From the IMG/VR virus record IMGVR_UViG_3300031965_000004, positions 1 to 64,000 of that record: DNA of 64,000 bases. One strand, 5' to 3'. Numbering within the stretch: position 1 is the first letter of the stretch; each line of letters starts with the position of its first letter. Both the position numbers and the translations under genes were made by a program. Below the pieces are notes generated by a model. It did not search any database, had not been told where the DNA came from, and worked only from the letters and a program-made list of their open reading frames with translations. This DNA comes from a virus. Of this stretch, positions 3,874-55,099 are shown piece after piece.

Positions 3874-5960
3874 GGGGCGTAGGGCGCCGGGCACCCGCGC
3901 GAGACCGAATGCCCACCGCTGAGCGGCTGGAGCTCGAGGGTGTAGCGACGGCCGGTCGAAGCCTCGAGCTTTTGCTCGACCCAAGCAATCGCGACTTCCG
4001 CGACGTCAAGCCCCCGAAAGCGGTCGGCCGAATCTCGGTAGACGGTGAACGAGAATTGTCCAGTGCGGTCATTGAGCCGCGTCAGGTAGTGCGTGCGGCT
4101 CGAGGTCACGTAGCCGGGAATCTGACACGTCGCGCGCACGAGATAGAGCGTGCCGGGCGCCTTCTTGCGCGGGTTTGGGAGCCGGGCGGGGGGCGGGTAG
4201 GAGAGCGCGAATCGGGACGCGACGTAGTCACCCGAGCGGTAGTCGTGGCGCTTGCCCGTTCCGTGCTCGACCTGGCGATTCCAGAACCGATCCTGGCTCA
4301 TGTCTCGGTGGACGGCGCTTGCCAGCGGGAGCCCGAACTGCTGCTGGGCGTAGTCGGCCGCGGCCTGGTAGAGCACGCGCGGGATCTCAGCGCCGCCGAG
4401 CGCCGGCGACACCACCAGGTCCATGACAGACGCGGCCGGCTGGATCCCGGCAAAATCCCGATCGTCGCCGGCGCCCTTGAGGAGGCGGATCCTGCCGGCC
4501 CACTCCCCGTTGGGGGCGAGGGCGTTGATCTCGACGTAGCGCCCGAAGTCGCGCGGGGTCTGGACGCGATAGGCGGGGACCGCGGTGGGCAACTCCAGCC
4601 TCGCCTTGGCAGCCATTTCCGTGATTCGACGCCGCTTGTCCTCGCCGGCCATGGAGAGCTCGCAAGCTGCGGCCATGTCGTCGTCACTCATGGTGTCGAC
4701 CGAGTCTCCGGCGCGTGTAGCGTGGTAGCCGATCCGCATGGCGCATAGCCAGTGCTCGCCAGTCTCCGTGAGCCGGTAGTAGCGCCGGTTGGCGCGGGCG
4801 GTGAGCCCAAGTCTTTGTAGGTAGCCCGCTTCGGCGAGCTCCACGACGCGCTGAGCAAGAAGCGATCGTATCGCCTTGCGGACCATGGTCTCGCTGCAAC
4901 GGGTGTCGCTCGTGATCTCGCTGATATGACTGTGACCCGTCTTGCCGAGATACTCAGCGATCTCCACCTCGCACGAGTCTCCGCCGCCTCCCTCAATAAT
5001 GTTGACGGTGTCAGCGAGGCTGCCGACCGACTTCCAGTCCTGCTGCAACTCGCGGCAGCGCTCGTCGGGCAGGTCAGGAACGTAGCCGCGCTCGCTTCCC
5101 TGCCCAACGTATTTGGGGTTCGATTGCTTCTTCTCCGCGTCGTGCCAAGCGACGCCCTCGAGCTCAAGCGTGTTCTCGAGCCGGGCCGGCGACGTGTTCA
5201 AGCGTCGCGCCAGCGCATGAAAGTGGATCCCCTTAAGGCGCCGGTGCCACTGCCACTTGGGCGAGACGAAGGACCGCTTGACCTCGAGCGGGCCGTAGGC
5301 GTAGGCCACGAGAAGCGGACAGAACCCGTGCTCCTTCGCGACGGGCGCGTCGTAGGCTTGCAGGTTCTCCAGGTCGAGAAGCAACCTCGCCCCGGATCTG
5401 GTGACGTGTAGGCGCGTCCCAGCCGGGGGCAGGACAGCTCCGCAAGCGTTGATCTTCTTCATGGGGTTCCTCTCGCAGGCGGGCGGGCCGCCGGTCCACC
5501 ACGACTGGAGTTTGCCACACCGACAGAGGGCGCCGCACGAACAACCGCAGTCACTCGAGGGGTTTGGGGCCTGCGCCTTGCCCTTGACGCGAACGGCCCC
5601 GTCGCGGGTGAGCGCGGCCTCGGCCGACCCCGTGAAGGGCGCACCGCTCCGCTTGTCGAAGAAGAAGGGCCCGTGCGTCAAGCAGTTGTAGGTGATCGCG
5701 CGCCAGCCGCGCCCTGACACCTTGGCCGTGAACGCGACGAGCTCGCCCGTGAGGTAGGCGTGGACGTTCTTGCTCTGCTCGCGGGAACACCGCTTCCAGT
5801 CGGCCTCGCTAACGACGGGCAGAACGTTGCGCAAGACGACTTCAGCAACGTAGGCGCGGACACGGCCGGCGTGGCTGACGACGAAGCGCCCTCGGCTGAC
5901 GCTCCGGTGAACGCGCACGCGCTTGCCACGGAGTTCGCGTAAGATCGAGGCGTCACTCAC
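3870..5960 (-). CDS. NP-segmented polyvalent protein (phage KNVHA domain, winged HTH, GNAT-like domain)
   Basis: GTG at 5960; KNVHAYLTG..TYN domain; HISEI..SETMVRKAIRSL..RYYRLTETG winged HTH; VMDLVVSP..GIPRVLY-like GNAT segment; 4 NP motifs between domains. Confidence 0.7.
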   Translation of the reverse strand: MSDASILRELRGKRVRVHRSVSRGRFVVSHAGRVRAYVAEVVLRNVLPVVSEADWKRCSREQSKNVHAYLTGELVAFTAKVSGRGWRAITYNCLTHGPFFFDKRSGAPFTGSAEAALTRDGAVRVKGKAQAPNPSSDCGCSCGALCRCGKLQSWWTGGPPACERNPMKKINACGAVLPPAGTRLHVTRSGARLLLDLENLQAYDAPVAKEHGFCPLLVAYAYGPLEVKRSFVSPKWQWHRRLKGIHFHALARRLNTSPARLENTLELEGVAWHDAEKKQSNPKYVGQGSERGYVPDLPDERCRELQQDWKSVGSLADTVNIIEGGGGDSCEVEIAEYLGKTGHSHISEITSDTRCSETMVRKAIRSLLAQRVVELAEAGYLQRLGLTARANRRYYRLTETGEHWLCAMRIGYHATRAGDSVDTMSDDDMAAACELSMAGEDKRRRITEMAAKARLELPTAVPAYRVQTPRDFGRYVEINALAPNGEWAGRIRLLKGAGDDRDFAGIQPAASVMDLVVSPALGGAEIPRVLYQAAADYAQQQFGLPLASAVHRDMSQDRFWNRQVEHGTGKRHDYRSGDYVASRFALSYPPPARLPNPRKKAPGTLYLVRATCQIPGYVTSSRTHYLTRLNDRTGQFSFTVYRDSADRFRGLDVAEVAIAWVEQKLEASTGRRYTLELQPLSGGHSVSRGCPAPYAP

Positions 5961-8400: not shown

Positions 8401-8523
8401 ATGCGGTTAGTCACCTCGGCGGGGTGGCCCGAACTGGACTTCGGTCTGGCGAAGGTGGCCCTTGGAGACTCCGCGCCTGCCGAAGAGACCCCCGAGTCGT
8501 GGATGCTCGGGGGTCTCTTCTTT
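8401..8523 (+). ncRNA. Putative small structured RNA (alternatively a leaderless 42-aa ORF, 8401-8529)
   Basis: Lies between a promoter and a terminator; closing stem TCGGCGGG/CCTGCCGA; GGAC-TTCG-GTCT tetraloop hairpin. Confidence 0.45.
8482..8523. terminator. Bidirectional intrinsic terminator
   Basis: 16-bp stem GAAGAGACCCCCGAGT/GCTCGGGGGTCTCTTC followed by TTT, between convergent units. Confidence 0.8.
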
Positions 8524-17486: not shown

Positions 17487-19346
17487 ATGCTCCTCAACGA
17501 CAAACGACAGCTAACGACAACCCTCGTTCAGGGCGGAAACAACTTCCGCGCGACGTGTTCCAGGTGTCGGCGATCGGTTCCGGCCGGCCGCGGCGACCTG
17601 CATTCGGCAGCGTCGGGTATGCCCTACCTTCTCTGCCGCCTGTGCGGGCTGCGCGAAGTCCCGCCCATGGGTGACGAGGTCCGCGCCATTTGCGCCGCTC
17701 GCTTCCCGCGCCGCGTGACCGTCGACGGCAAGCGCAAGGAGGTCAGCCCCTACCCCTACCAGGTCGTGGACGCCGTCTACCTGGCCAACTCCCGCGCCTA
17801 CCTCGTGGGCAACCAAATGGGCACGGGCAAGACCCCGACGACGATCCTAGGCGTGATCGAGGTTGCCAGGCTCCTGGCCATGCCAGTGATCGCGATGGTT
17901 CCTTCGACGCTGAAGTGGAACTGGGCGAAGGAGATCGACCGCTGGGGCGATCAGAAGACGGTCGTCTCGATCTGCCCTGACCAAGCGAGTTTCAGGATCC
18001 CTGAGCCAGGCGAGGTCTTGATCTGCTCCTACGGGCTCATGCCGGGGCAGGCGTGCAGGCAGTGCAAGAAGGAGGCGACCCAACTCAAGAAGGCCAAGCA
18101 AGCGCGCAGGGCCGCCAACCTCCTGCGGAGCTGCGCTCACTACGCCGACCAAGCCTGCCCTGTGCCCGTGTTCGATCGACCTGTGATCCTGTTTGCTGAC
18201 GAAGCGCACATGCTCCAACGCGAGAGCACGATCCGCCGGTTCCTCTGGGACAACCTCGCGGACGCGATCTTCAACGCGGGCGGGCGCCTCTACGGGCTCA
18301 CGGGCACGATCGTCAGCAACACCCCCAACGACACGCTCTCGATCGCGAAAGCATTCAAGGTCGACGCCGCGGCCTTCGACGCCGACGACGAGTTCAACGC
18401 CCTCTTCGTCGACTGGCACAACAACGAGAAGGGATCGCGCTCAGCACCCGAAGGCGAGGAACGAACGGAGCTACTCATGGCGCTCCGACCGATCCGGCTG
18501 TGCCGACTGCGGAAGCACGTCCTCGAGCACCTCCCACCCGTCGTTTGGAAGGACCCGATCCTTGTCGAGCTCACGCCCGAGACGCTCAAGGAAATTGACA
18601 ACACCGTCCAACTCCTGCTGGCGAAGCGGCGCTCCTGGCAGGAAGTTGCCGAAGGCCGGCTCGACAACCCCAACGAAAAGAACCTCAGCGAAGACGAGCA
18701 TGAGCGCCGCGAGGGGCTCTTTCAGGATCGCGTCCAGTTCTACTTCGCGAGCCGGCCTTGGAACACGGACGAGGAAATTCAGGAGGCGGTCAACGAAGCT
18801 CTCATGAGCAAGGACCAGGCTCCCCTCTTCACCGAGTTGTCCGGGCTCCGGGCCAAGATCAGCCTCGCCAAGGTCAAGGCTCTGCAAGAGGTCGTCGACG
18901 AGTTTCGCGACCAGAACGAGCCACTCGTCGTGTTCTGCGACCACATTCAAGTTCTCGACAAGGTGCTTGGGGGGCAGGACGGCTACGCGGTCCTGAAAGG
19001 CAACGTCTCTCCCAAAGCCCGTCAGAGGATGGTGGAGGACTTCCAGTCGGGCGCGCTCAAGCACGGGATCGGGATCTCGCTCCGGGCCGGCGCAACGGGG
19101 ATCACGCTCACGCGCGCCGCCCACATGGTCTTTGTGGACTGGCATTGGAACCCGTCCAACCTCAAGCAGGCCGTTGATCGACTCAACCGGCCGGGTGCCG
19201 AGGTCCACGACTCGATCACCGTCATGCGCCTGCAAGCCGATCACGTTATCGACCGCATGGTCGTTACGACAGTCACCGAGAAGCTCCAGTTGCAAGACGC
19301 GCTGGAAGACGACGAGGCCAGCATGGCCGGTTTGGAGTTCGCTTGA
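17487..19346 (+). CDS. SNF2-family helicase with N-terminal Zn finger
   Basis: MGTGKT, DEAH, LTGT, GITLTRA, WNP..QAVDRLNR. Confidence 0.9.
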   Translation: MLLNDKRQLTTTLVQGGNNFRATCSRCRRSVPAGRGDLHSAASGMPYLLCRLCGLREVPPMGDEVRAICAARFPRRVTVDGKRKEVSPYPYQVVDAVYLANSRAYLVGNQMGTGKTPTTILGVIEVARLLAMPVIAMVPSTLKWNWAKEIDRWGDQKTVVSICPDQASFRIPEPGEVLICSYGLMPGQACRQCKKEATQLKKAKQARRAANLLRSCAHYADQACPVPVFDRPVILFADEAHMLQRESTIRRFLWDNLADAIFNAGGRLYGLTGTIVSNTPNDTLSIAKAFKVDAAAFDADDEFNALFVDWHNNEKGSRSAPEGEERTELLMALRPIRLCRLRKHVLEHLPPVVWKDPILVELTPETLKEIDNTVQLLLAKRRSWQEVAEGRLDNPNEKNLSEDEHERREGLFQDRVQFYFASRPWNTDEEIQEAVNEALMSKDQAPLFTELSGLRAKISLAKVKALQEVVDEFRDQNEPLVVFCDHIQVLDKVLGGQDGYAVLKGNVSPKARQRMVEDFQSGALKHGIGISLRAGATGITLTRAAHMVFVDWHWNPSNLKQAVDRLNRPGAEVHDSITVMRLQADHVIDRMVVTTVTEKLQLQDALEDDEASMAGLEFA

Positions 19347-19801
19347 CCAAGTCTGAATTTTTCCCCTTCGCGCTGAGTGCTGCGGAACTGGCGGCTCTCC
19401 CGCCACTCCCTGCGCTGGACTCTACGCAATTTGCCCTGCTGTTCCTCCTCGCCGAGTTCGGCGTAGGGAGCCAGTGGCTCCCCGAAGGCGTGGTCCCCTT
19501 TCTCTCGCAGCGAGTCATCAAGGAGGCGGGCACGACCTACACCGACTACCGACAAGGGCTGCGCGGAGCGGCTGCCATGGTCGACGCGAAGGTGCTCGAC
19601 TTCGACGAGCACTACGGGACCTACACCGTGACCGAGTTCGGGGCGAGCACAGCGCTGGTGTGGGCGAAGTCCCTCCCTGAAGTCGATTCGGTCTACGCCG
19701 CGATCGAGACGGCGCAAGGCCGCCTGGGCCACGTCGAGGAGCTCGACTACCTCGAGCTCCACCTCGTTGCGCCGGAGGGCCTTCCTGTGGGTGACGCATG
19801 A
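19343..19801 (+). CDS. Hypothetical protein
   Basis: Coupled TTGA start. Confidence 0.65.
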   Translation: MTKSEFFPFALSAAELAALPPLPALDSTQFALLFLLAEFGVGSQWLPEGVVPFLSQRVIKEAGTTYTDYRQGLRGAAAMVDAKVLDFDEHYGTYTVTEFGASTALVWAKSLPEVDSVYAAIETAQGRLGHVEELDYLELHLVAPEGLPVGDA

Positions 19802-28444: not shown

Positions 28445-28583
28445 GTCGTGTGCTGTCCACCAGGCGAAGGTCCCGAAACGGGGGGCTAGCGCTCGAAAGG
28501 GGGGGCGGCTACCCTTGTCGTGCGCTCAACGGCGTATCATGGTTACGCCCCTTGGCGAACGGGGTGCTTTCGGCGGAGGACCA

Positions 28584-28823
28584 GTGCTGAGCGATACGTG
28601 TTGGGCCTGCGGGGGGAGGCTCGACGACACCGACGGAGTCGGCCATGTTCCTGCAATCGGGGAGTCCCTCCGCTTTGCTCACGCTGCCTGTGAGCGTGCG
28701 CGAGCCGCGGCGCAACGCCGCGAGGAGCGAAAACTCAAGAAGCAGGCCAGGGCCCGAAAGAGGTCCCGCCGTGCCAAGCGAGCAAGCCGAAGATCCACCC
28801 GAGGAAGAAGCCGACGCCGGTAG
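28584..28823 (+). CDS. Small basic Zn-binding hypothetical protein
   Basis: GGAGGA SD then GTG; CWAC..HAAC; Arg-rich tail. Confidence 0.55.
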   Translation: MLSDTCWACGGRLDDTDGVGHVPAIGESLRFAHAACERARAAAQRREERKLKKQARARKRSRRAKRASRRSTRGRSRRR

Positions 28824-29250
28824 CGCGCTCTCGACGCCGACCGACGCCGACCGTCTCGAATGGGAGACCTGCACCGACGCCCTCCGCTACTTCGCCGCGA
28901 TCTCCCAGCGCCTCTCCGCGGACGAACAGGACCTCGCCGTCGAAGCGTTCTTCGCCGAGTTCGGCGTCGACGAGAGCGTGCTACCGGAGCTGGCCGAGCT
29001 CTACGCCGAAGCGACCTACTGCGCGTGGGTCACGGCGATCAGGACCCTTCCCGGCTTGGGAACGGCCTGGGTCACTTGGGCGCGGGCGACCTACCGTGAG
29101 CGTGTCGCGTTCCGCTTCGAGTGGGTCGGCCGCGAGGAGAACCGGTCGCGGAAGCTCGAGAAGGACCCGGTGGCACCCTACCGAGTCGCGGGATTCGGAG
29201 ACCGGCGCAACCCCCTCAGATTCGGGATCGAAGGCAGCACAGCCGAGTAG
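28645..29250 (+). CDS. Hypothetical protein (true start uncertain, probably downstream)
   Basis: C-terminal two thirds look coding-like. Confidence 0.5.
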   Translation: MFLQSGSPSALLTLPVSVREPRRNAARSENSRSRPGPERGPAVPSEQAEDPPEEEADAGSALSTPTDADRLEWETCTDALRYFAAISQRLSADEQDLAVEAFFAEFGVDESVLPELAELYAEATYCAWVTAIRTLPGLGTAWVTWARATYRERVAFRFEWVGREENRSRKLEKDPVAPYRVAGFGDRRNPLRFGIEGSTAE

Positions 29251-29531
29251 GGTCGCGGGTCGGAAGGCGCGATGGCGCATCGGCTGTGTTGGGCAGGCCC
29301 CCTGAGGCGAGGCGGGTCCAGTCTCCCACGAGCACCGGAACCCTCGCCCCAGAGGGCACATGGGGTAGTTGGTAGCGCCGGCCGAGGCGGTCCCCCACGA
29401 GTCAAAGCCGACCCTGGGACATGTTTGGCCTCGACCGGCGCATGATTGGTTGCGCCGGTCGCTGGCTGCCGCCCCCGCTCAAGAGCAAGGGGCTGCTTTC
29501 CCGTAGGTGCCCGCGCCCGGCGACCGGCGCA
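29238..29531 (-). ncRNA. Array of long-stem hairpin RNAs, two ending in ACCA
   Basis: Units at 29447-29531, 29370-29442, 29290-29357 and 29238-29288, directly downstream of the tRNA. Confidence 0.55.
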
Positions 29532-29605
29532 TAGCGAGAGCAGGATTCGAACCTGCGACCTCCGGCTTATGAGGCCGGCGAGCTACCTGGCTGCTCTACC
29601 CCGCG
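29532..29605 (-). tRNA. tRNA-Met(CAT), initiator-like, CCA not encoded
   Basis: CGCGGGGTAGAGCAGCCAGGTAGCTCG-CCGGC-CTCATAA-GCCGG-AGGTC-GCAGG-TTCGAAT-CCTGC-TCTCGCTA; 1:72 mismatch. Confidence 0.92.
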
Positions 29606-29614
29606 TCGAGCTCG

Positions 29615-29643
29615 AATCCTACGCTTCAACTACGACAGGGGCA
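29615..29643 (-). promoter_or_regulatory. Sigma70-type promoter for the tRNA unit
   Basis: TTGCCC-N17-TAGGAT. Confidence 0.55.
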
Positions 29644-29654
29644 AGTGCTACGAT
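29630..29654 (+). promoter_or_regulatory. CTAC-N15-TACGAT promoter giving a leaderless mRNA
   Basis: GTG start lies 6 nt after the -10 box. Confidence 0.7.
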
Positions 29655-29660
29655 CGCTTC

Positions 29661-30929
29661 GTGCCTGGCGTCGCCCCAAACCCCTTCTACACCGACCCGC
29701 GCGACATAGGAGGGGCTCGAGGCGACTACTACGAGCACGGGGCCCCTGAGTTCTGCCCCGGCTGCGGAGCTGAGGCCGACTGGCATTACGACCTCGAGGA
29801 GACGTTGGCCAGCGGGCGTGATCGGTTCTTCTGCGCCCACTGCGGTGACTTCCAAGACACCATGGCCGGGGCGAAGCCCCTTCAGCACCACCCCCCGTTG
29901 ATCTCGCAGAAGGCGATCAAGCGCGGCGCGAGCCCCTGTCCTCCGCTCGGAACGGGGTCGGTCCTGCTCCCCCCCGTTTGGTTCCGGCCTCGCGAGAGTC
30001 GCTTCCAGTTCTACGTGGGGGCCAAGCCCAACTGGCACATGACGCGCGGCCCTCGCTCGAAGCTGGACCCGCTCCCGCTCCCCGTCCCGGCCTTCGTGTC
30101 CTACCTCCAGCTTCGCAAGATCAAGGCCCTGCGTCCGGCTGTCGTTCGCTGGGCGTTGGACTCGGGCGGGTTCACCATGCTCAGCACGCATGGGCGCTGG
30201 ACGATTGGCCCCGAAACCTTCGCAGACGACGTGCGGCGCTACATTGCGGAGGTTGGCTGCCTGGACTTCGTGCCCGTGCAGGACTGGATGTGCGAGCCGC
30301 AGATCACGGCCCAGACGCGCAAGACCGTTGCGGATCACCAGCGGTTGACCGTCCAGAGCTACTTGGACTTGCGGCGCCTCGCCCCCGAGGTCCCTTGGGC
30401 GCCTGTCCTGCAAGGATTCGAGATTCGCGACTACTACCAGATTCTCGCCCTCTACCAGGAGGCGGGGGTCTCGCTCGAGGAGTTGCAGCGAGCGCCGAGA
30501 CTTGGGATCGGGAGTGTCTGTCGGAGACAGTCCACCCGGCAAGTCGCCTACATGCTGCGCGAGTTCCGCGACGGCTATGGCCTGGAGAACATGCACGGGT
30601 TCGGCTTCAAGGTTACGGGGCTGATCTACGCCGCGCGCTTCTTGGCGTCGGCCGACTCGTTTGCGTGGAGCAAGGAAGCCTACGAGACAAGGGCGCACAA
30701 CCGCCCGAGCTCGCTGGGTCACCGCCACGGTGCGAGCGGCGGTTGCCAGAACTGCCCTGACTACGCCGTGCGCTGGCGCAACCGGCTGATCGAGAAGATC
30801 CTGCTCGCCTACGAGCGCCTGCCCGACGATCAAGTGGACCTGGCGCTGGAGTGGATCGAGAAGAAGATTCCGGCGGCGTTTCAAGACGAGCTGGCGTTCG
30901 GCCAGCAGTATCGGCTGTTTCCAGAATGA
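29661..30929 (+). CDS. TGT/DpdA-like (deazaguanine transglycosylase-fold) protein with N-terminal Zn finger
   Basis: ALDSGGF, QDWMCEP, PVLQG, GIGSVCRRQ, HGFGFK, SADSFAW. Confidence 0.8.
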   Translation: MPGVAPNPFYTDPRDIGGARGDYYEHGAPEFCPGCGAEADWHYDLEETLASGRDRFFCAHCGDFQDTMAGAKPLQHHPPLISQKAIKRGASPCPPLGTGSVLLPPVWFRPRESRFQFYVGAKPNWHMTRGPRSKLDPLPLPVPAFVSYLQLRKIKALRPAVVRWALDSGGFTMLSTHGRWTIGPETFADDVRRYIAEVGCLDFVPVQDWMCEPQITAQTRKTVADHQRLTVQSYLDLRRLAPEVPWAPVLQGFEIRDYYQILALYQEAGVSLEELQRAPRLGIGSVCRRQSTRQVAYMLREFRDGYGLENMHGFGFKVTGLIYAARFLASADSFAWSKEAYETRAHNRPSSLGHRHGASGGCQNCPDYAVRWRNRLIEKILLAYERLPDDQVDLALEWIEKKIPAAFQDELAFGQQYRLFPE

Positions 30930-55019: not shown

Positions 55020-55099
55020 GCCCAACACGTCCACCTTAGGACGGCGGAGGGGGTGGGCCGGGTGACCAGCCCACCCCCTTTGCTTTAGGAGAGATCACA

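Follow-up and report, generated by a model that had tools for sequence, protein, structure and literature searches.

Three paralogous hairpins behind the tRNA-Met gene of an uncultured soil virus as candidate mimics of the tRNA acceptor arm

A train of three paralogous hairpins lies on the minus strand of virus record IMGVR_UViG_3300031965_000004, directly behind a tRNA-Met gene. The record is an IMG/VR virus of 94.4 kb from a soil metagenome, with ~67% G+C and an estimated completeness of ~74%; the window, which is the whole stretch of DNA analysed here, is its first 64 kb. The hairpins, called units 1 to 3, are probably small RNAs excised by the cell's tRNA-trimming enzymes. In the reading that we prefer, they would be mimics of the tRNA acceptor arm, co-transcribed with the tRNA and freed by RNase Z and RNase P. 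We give this reading a probability of roughly one half. A first-pass annotation, made from the sequence without database searches, had placed a train of long-stem RNAs on the minus strand right behind the tRNA discriminator, and this placement is correct. Unit 1 begins at 29531, the next base after discriminator A73 of the tRNA at 29532-29605, with 0 nt between them. The tRNA and the units are as follows.

29532-29605, minus strand: tRNA-Met(CAU), initiator-like (C1xU72 mismatch, A73), without an encoded CCA (ARAGORN; Rfam RF00005, 59.6 bits)
29447-29531, minus strand: unit 1, 85 nt, with the tail ACCA at 29447-29450; -51.1 kcal/mol, z -2.75
29443-29446, minus strand: spacer AUCA, 4 nt, from the CCA of unit 1 to U(+1) of unit 2 (sequence, unit alignment)
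29370-29442, minus strand: unit 2, 73 nt, with UxU and then the stem, tail (U)ACCA; -45.3 kcal/mol, z -4.89
29290-29360, minus strand: unit 3, 71 nt, with the tail CUGCCCA; -47.5 kcal/mol, z -3.99

Units 1 to 3 are real minus-strand hairpins. The stems and tails first proposed for them (ACCA, UACCA, and a 16-bp stem followed by CTGCCCA) hold at their coordinates, and the stems are uninterrupted over 12, 14 and 16 bp. In unit 1, 29520-29531 pairs with 29451-29462 in 12 Watson-Crick pairs, which enclose a branched interior of 57 nt with UACG and CUUG tetraloops. The stem of unit 2 (29428-29441 with 29375-29388) has 14 bp, one of them G.U, and its 38-nt interior contains an inner hairpin. The stem of unit 3 (29342-29357 with 29297-29312) has 16 bp with two G.U pairs. 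It is closed by a G.G mismatch (29341, 29313), and its 28-nt interior holds an inner hairpin with a GUGG loop. The words said to be shared between the units were recovered as well. ATGCGCCGGTCG is common to units 1 and 2 and CTCGTGGG[GA]GAC is common to units 2 and 3, and each occurs at those two places only in the 94-kb record. Unit 2 thus combines the stem of unit 1 with the interior motif of unit 3.

Unit alignment places all three in one register, with the 5' end (C)A|UG(C/U)GCC (AUGUGCC in unit 3) and the 3' end CCAA. The first-base U faces A in unit 1, a mismatched U in unit 2 and a wobble-pairing G in unit 3. After the partner base comes one unpaired base (A, A and C in units 1, 2 and 3), then CCA, then A. 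Reading unit 3 as a C-CCA end requires that U.G and G.U pairs and one mismatch are allowed. In every unit, therefore, the paired 5' and 3' ends are followed by one unpaired base and CCA, and a terminal helix of ~12 bp or more (12, 14 and 16 pairs) runs from the two ends of the RNA. Neither real tRNA of the record encodes CCA, whereas the hairpins do. Since the frame is shared by all three units, they are best read as paralogues that arose by tandem duplication.

The N-CCA register supports the view that the units have a form that tRNA-processing enzymes would accept. The first-pass annotation had described the train as tRNA-mimic RNAs matured by such enzymes, and this part of it stands insofar as the structures are of RNA type, lie on the tRNA strand, are contiguous with the tRNA and share the register. 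Its fourth unit has to be taken out of the train, as discussed below.

The existence of the hairpins and their clustering are far beyond chance. Expectations were obtained from Markov shuffles of the record that preserve dinucleotide frequencies, with spans of 30-120 nt. On both strands of the whole record, ~12 uninterrupted stems of at least 12 Watson-Crick pairs are expected, and ~0.9 of at least 14. Four stems of at least 12 Watson-Crick pairs were found here on the minus strand within 430 nt (29297-29726). The CCA alone is weak evidence because a stem followed by CCA is common by chance, with ~51 stems of at least 10 bp and then CCA expected per record.

Both the G.U pairs and the energies of folding point to the minus strand. 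Units 2 and 3 lose 8-12 kcal/mol of stability when folded as the plus strand (-36.9 kcal/mol for unit 2 and -35.5 kcal/mol for unit 3) because their G.U pairs turn into A.C mismatches there. The UACG and CUUG tetraloops of unit 1 are RNA-stable motifs on the minus-strand reading only.

Conservation was assessed in a relative called X2, which is ~96% identical and comes from a public sediment metagenome run, where a Logan contig spans 29237-30500. The X2 sequence was rebuilt from a variant table, which may omit some changes, and was not read as a contig. Runs X3-X5 are without coverage of the train, and the comparison rests on X2. Over units 1 to 3 (242 nt), X2 differs by 13 substitutions and four indels, about the divergence of the neighbouring genes. 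The first-pass annotation had staked its reading on the stems being conserved, and in X2 they are: five substitutions fall in stems and none breaks a pair. In unit 1, the pair 29523/29459 changes from U-A to C-G and the adjacent pair 29524/29458 from G-C to U.G, and in unit 2, G-C becomes G.U at 29436/29380; of these three, the last two can pair only when read on the minus strand. In unit 3, both G of the G.G mismatch are deleted, which lengthens the helix. In simulations with 13 random substitutions, the probability of at least two doubly changed pairs that still pair was 0.0015, and that of no broken pair given at least five stem hits was 0.01. The terminal helices of 12, 14 and 16 pairs are all kept. 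Of the single-stranded tails, the ACCA of unit 1 is unchanged, and that of unit 2 loses one base to become stem-U-CCA. What selection seems to preserve is the terminal helices, together with the CCA in units 1 and 2; the interiors drift.

Changes within the tRNA itself are not visible in the variant table, since the tRNAs of other organisms swamp the depth. The X2 open reading frame (ORF) P0123, which runs antisense through the tRNA, is identical to the window translation at every codon except the first. This suggests at most one change in the X2 tRNA, a G-to-A in the T-loop.

In a different reading, the hairpins would work as single-stranded DNA, either as a signal for replication or priming near the primase/Rep gene or as an element of att or MITE type, or else at the level of the plus-strand mRNA that links the two flanking genes, which encode a 201-aa protein and DpdA. 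Single-stranded DNA hairpins tolerate G.T wobble too, and the plus strand of unit 1 can form a stem of 15 bp. The strand evidence above argues against this, as A.C mismatches appear on the plus strand in units 2 and 3 and at both single-sided X2 changes, and the RNA-type tetraloops form on the minus strand only. The same is true of the exact abutment on the tRNA and the shared register. A mobile element such as a MITE (miniature inverted-repeat transposable element) was rejected because no other copies are present in the record; also, no target-site duplications were seen on reading the flanks. We regard this as the least likely of the explanations considered.

Another explanation takes the units for relics, now in decay, of tRNA genes that were duplicated or of tRNA-linked repeats like those behind E. 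coli tyrT, without a function of their own. This would account for their tandem arrangement behind the tRNA, for the CCA that ends every unit, for the end of unit 2 (CGCUA-CCA, where the tRNA ends in CGCUA) and for the fast evolution of the interiors with indels. However, none of the units carries a tRNA signal. With RF00005 at E up to 10 and with relaxed ARAGORN, only 29532-29605 scores, which agrees with the earlier statement that no unit has a T-loop or a cloverleaf. Behind E. coli tyrT, each unit closes with 18-19 nt from the 3' end of the tRNA ahead of it. Here, the stretch shared with the tRNA 3' end is the 5 nt CGCUA of unit 2 only, and rtT gave no Rfam match, so this family was rejected. 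The tRNAs of the record offer no encoded CCA to copy, and perfect stems of 12-16 bp kept via compensated changes argue for selection. Decay therefore seems improbable to us.

The tRNA and the train share a gap of 410 nt between two plus-strand genes. The other features around this gap are as follows.

28645-29250, plus strand: gene for a 201-aa protein, converging on the train; a real gene, with a third-position G+C (GC3) of 0.81
29246-29292, plus strand: repeat with a small hairpin, the former unit 4, beginning at the stop codon of the 201-aa gene (repeat search, folding)
29616-29644, minus strand: promoter-like site TTGCCC-17 nt-TAGGAT, its -10 hexamer ending 10 nt ahead of the tRNA 5' end (pattern scan)
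29661-30929, plus strand: dpdA, 7-deazaguanine DNA transglycosylase family, divergent from the tRNA promoter (Pfam PF23859, 6.8e-52; PHROG 1279)
29666-29726, minus strand: 61-nt near-perfect hairpin ending in GCCA, antisense to the first ~22 dpdA codons; -39.1 kcal/mol, z -5.45 (plus strand -24.9)

Both flanking genes are real because their GC3 is 0.81-0.84 and their changes in X2 are mostly synonymous and in third positions. X2 has 13 substitutions in the 201-aa gene, of which 10 are synonymous, and nine of these 10 lie at third positions; those in dpdA are also mostly synonymous. The minus-strand ORFs in the area of the tRNA and train are spurious. Therefore, the tRNA and train form a small minus-strand island in a plus-strand block. 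A protein search with a spurious 87-aa frame across unit 1 and the tRNA gave no match, and the product of the 201-aa gene has no Pfam or PHROG match.

The site TTGCCC-17-TAGGAT is inferred to act as a promoter, and co-transcription of the tRNA and the units is plausible. A stricter consensus scan returned no sigma-70 promoter and no intrinsic terminator in 28500-30300. The site was found under relaxed criteria (TTG with a match to TTGACA of 4/6 or better, a spacer of 16-18 nt, and TANNNT), which give three such sites in the whole record on both strands. The -10 boxes of TAGGAT type are typical of high-GC actinobacterial vegetative promoters, and DpdA, too, has its best relatives in actinobacteria. 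Across the record, the best promoter-like site lies elsewhere, at 25687-25650 on the minus strand (TTGACA-16-TACGAT), opposite the stretch upstream of a 651-aa primase/Rep-like gene. The 61-nt hairpin lies upstream of the promoter-like site of the tRNA. Candidate roles for this hairpin are those of a "unit 0", an insulator or an antisense element that regulates the translation of dpdA.

Taken together, we propose that the tRNA-Met and units 1 to 3 form one non-coding minus-strand transcription unit that runs against the plus-strand gene flow and would be transcribed from a promoter of host type immediately ahead of the tRNA. The ends of each unit would pair into a long helix followed by the unpaired base and CCA, so that the tRNA acceptor end is copied without the D, anticodon and T arms. 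A cut after A73, which would at the same time create the 5' end of unit 1, would be made by RNase Z or a comparable enzyme, to which the tRNA is suited because it has no encoded CCA. Ahead of units 2 and 3, the A|U junction would be cut by RNase P, an enzyme that takes hairpins ending in a 3' RCCA as substrates, and 3' trimming would halt at the CCA. This would yield structured RNAs of ~85, ~73 and ~71 nt. Bacterial RNase P cleaves model hairpins of the acceptor/T stem, pre-4.5S RNA, phage M3 RNA and phage C4 RNA (PMC11143913). Another report describes cleavage of a non-tRNA substrate as dependent on a 3' RCCA motif (PMC12710915). Such a dependence would explain why the hairpins encode CCA although the real tRNAs do not. 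No CCA-adding enzyme is encoded in the record.

Several findings weigh against this proposal. A 28-nt deletion in X2 takes out the whole tail of unit 3, including its CCA (CCCA in the window), and the tail of unit 2, which is ACCA in the window, is UCCA in X2. Because the tail of unit 3 is deleted in the sole relative available, the CCA may matter in two units only. The CCA of units 1 and 2 traces to one duplication and counts as about one event, and a stem is followed by N(1-2)-CCA by chance in ~4% of cases, as estimated from base composition. The conservation evidence comes from one close relative that was rebuilt from a variant table, and the two double changes are adjacent dinucleotides, each possibly one mutational event. 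Unit 1, unlike the other two, shows nearly the same folding stability on either strand. Also, the stems of units 2 and 3 exceed the 12-bp acceptor/T stack, and there is no T-loop for the RNase P S-domain.

The main rival is that the hairpins are simply a 3' trailer of the tRNA. They would end or insulate minus-strand transcription at the 201-aa gene and protect the precursor from 3' exonucleases, and their CCA would be incidental. Several observations fit this: the train fills the convergent gap exactly, from the end of the plus-strand gene (29250) to the end of the tRNA (29532), selection is visible on stems and not on interiors, the CCA of unit 3 is dispensable in X2, and no other terminator was found for the tRNA. 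The structure of the units is harder to reconcile with it. No U-tract follows any stem, and 0 sites in 28500-30300 qualified as intrinsic terminators. The "loops" are 28-57 nt long and have helices of their own, unlike the short-loop, terminator-type hairpins elsewhere in the record (e.g. 8482-8520 and 55043-55084). N-CCA-A also recurs in one register across the three units. Furthermore, plus-strand transcription must cross the train if dpdA is read through from upstream. We consider the trailer possible, though clearly less probable than the release of acceptor-arm mimics.

The element first described as unit 4 (29238-29288) is not a member of the train. It is a plus-strand repeat anchored on a stop codon, and its region folds better on the plus strand than on the minus strand (-29.2 vs -20.5 kcal/mol). 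Its 45-nt core has a 91% identical copy at record positions 66226-66270 (L002:1501-1545), behind the stop of a J-domain gene. Both copies begin with the GAG-TAG end of a plus-strand gene (TAG at 29248 and 66226), and the two genes are unrelated. In X2, the 28-nt deletion removes one arm of the outer 9-bp stem of unit 4, and the X2 assembly breaks at the 45-nt repeat. This repeat is perhaps a terminator or a stability hairpin.

Units 1 to 3 match no known family, as determined with the Infernal/Rfam search that the first-pass annotation had called for. At E up to 10, the scan of the units gave only matches at E 1.5-8.6 (two microRNA precursors and Atu_C7), which are far under the gathering scores and were treated as chance. 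A likeness of GGAAAGCAGCC in unit 1 to signal recognition particle (SRP)/4.5S RNA was rejected for want of an Rfam match. The suggestion that the units resemble Y RNAs was dropped, since no Rfam Y RNA or YrlA match was found up to E 10 and the Ro/TROVE domain (PF05731) is absent from the 94-kb record, itself ~74% complete. Small peptides were rejected as well. Units 1 and 2 have AUG-led frames of 17 and 13 codons (MRRS...) with no Shine-Dalgarno sequence upstream, and the frames change mostly non-synonymously in X2, with four amino-acid changes and one silent change in that of unit 1.

Relatives of the train were sought in several collections. GenBank and INPHARED phages share nothing beyond the tRNA. 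In IMG/VR, no close relative was found with DpdA (singly and as an alignment), the 201-aa protein, the 651-aa protein or the tRNA 3' half as queries. A scan of JGI metagenomes gave distant DpdA loci only, at up to 51% identity, and none of their tRNAs is trailed by a hairpin and CCA. Metagenomic homologues of DpdA include P0121 (99% identical, on a contig of 35 kb) and P0002 (64-68% identical, on a contig of 5.4 kb). A pattern scan of GTDB with the stem of units 1 and 2 and WACCA gave 114 matches, all seemingly chance, with stems of at most 11 bp and none near a tRNA.

Some observations were made in passing. The record has two tRNA genes, of which only the tRNA-Met lies within the window (ARAGORN, Rfam); the second, tRNA-Arg(UCU) at 88458-88530, is likewise without CCA. 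The tRNA-Met has the 5' end CGCGGGG, the anticodon-stem pairs G29-C41 and G30-C40 but C31-G39, and two G.U acceptor pairs. The N-terminal extension of DpdA (~140 aa, 29661-30040, plus strand) has two Cys pairs (CPGCG ... CAHCG) and is zinc-ribbon-like. Most DpdA proteins lack this extension, and the metagenomic homologue P0003 (47% identical) shares it. At 19406-19473 on the plus strand, inside the coding region 19343-19801, a 17-bp stem with three G.U pairs and a 31-nt loop is directly followed by CCA. Outside the window, at L002:1630-1665 (record about 66355-66390), a perfect T-arm-like GGGGTTCGACTCCCC is followed by CAGGC and is not called a tRNA by ARAGORN. Either a fragment of a tRNA 3' end (an att-type site) or some tRNA-like element may lie here. 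Finally, an unrelated virus with 66% G+C (L122, IMGVR_UViG_3300020021_000013) carries, near 4039-4061 of its locus on the minus strand, a tRNA-like gene that shares the T-arm and the acceptor 3' half. This gene is trailed by two copies of the palindromic unit GCCGATCGGCCGATCGGCTACCTACGA and by further T-arm-like sequences.

In the boldest reading of their function, the CCA-tailed mimics could serve as decoys for host anti-phage toxins that recognise the acceptor stem and CCA, shielding the real tRNA pool in infection. Possible targets are toxSAS pyrophosphokinases, nucleotidyltransferases of the MenT/AbiEii type and GNAT acetyltransferases. A synthetic acceptor minihelix suffices as a substrate for the toxSAS FaRel2 (bioRxiv 10.1101/2024.07.05.602228), and the mechanism is possible for this reason. 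We nevertheless think that a decoy role is unlikely. If the hairpins were decoys for immune toxins that target the CCA end, or processing punctuation, an RNA-based layer would be added to the conflict between phage and host. The finding would be an ordinary one if the hairpins were a trailer and no more.

Since T4, small non-tRNA RNAs with an unexplained function have been known from the tRNA clusters of phages. In T4 itself, the tRNA-processing machinery frees the species 1 and species 2 RNAs, for which no function is known. One source places them (rnaC, rnaD) in the T4 tRNA gene cluster (PMC2330249). The likeness to our case is that small non-tRNA RNAs lie inside a phage tRNA transcription unit: the hairpins are on the same strand as the tRNA, with 0-nt spacing and a promoter-like site upstream, from which co-transcription is inferred. 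The differences are that three tandem paralogues lie here behind a single tRNA of a high-GC uncultured virus, and that they have plain long terminal helices and no T arm. No model of the T4 species turned up in the Rfam scans. Stable RNAs that resemble them are one of three readings of the function, the others being punctuation, insulation or 3' protection at the convergent junction, and decoys. The locus offers a clean, minimal case of this phenomenon, with one tRNA, a promoter-like site and three paralogous RNAs reduced to the acceptor helix and CCA tail, and it also displays strand-specific compensatory evolution.

Two other systems are similar in part. The E. coli tRNA-linked repeats, or rtT, are also tandem non-coding units directly behind a tRNA, with tRNA-like 3' ends and CCA; here, only 5 nt are shared with the tRNA, and the 5' end of each unit complements its own 3' end. 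The YrlA bacterial Y RNAs (PMC4201824) have a long stem formed from both ends and mimic tRNA, and Y RNAs occur in some phages. In contrast, units 1 to 3 have no mimic of a T-arm or D-arm and no Rfam match, and the record has no Ro/TROVE gene.

The hairpin-type substrates of RNase P (model hairpins, pre-4.5S RNA, phi80 M3 RNA and P1/P7 C4 antisense RNA; PMC11143913) have a long end-paired helix and then a single-stranded RCCA; the helix recurs in our units, and their tails read ACCA in units 1 and 2 but CCCA in unit 3 and UCCA in unit 2 of X2. Unit 1, with exactly 12 bp and ACCA, has the length of the acceptor/T-stem stack. The stems of units 2 and 3 are longer, at 14-16 bp, the interiors are large and branched, and in our case cleavage is a prediction. 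Rfam gave no C4 or 4.5S match in the units, with no search made for an antisense target. By analogy, units 1 to 3 would belong with the small RNAs of phage tRNA clusters and with the hairpin substrates of RNase P.

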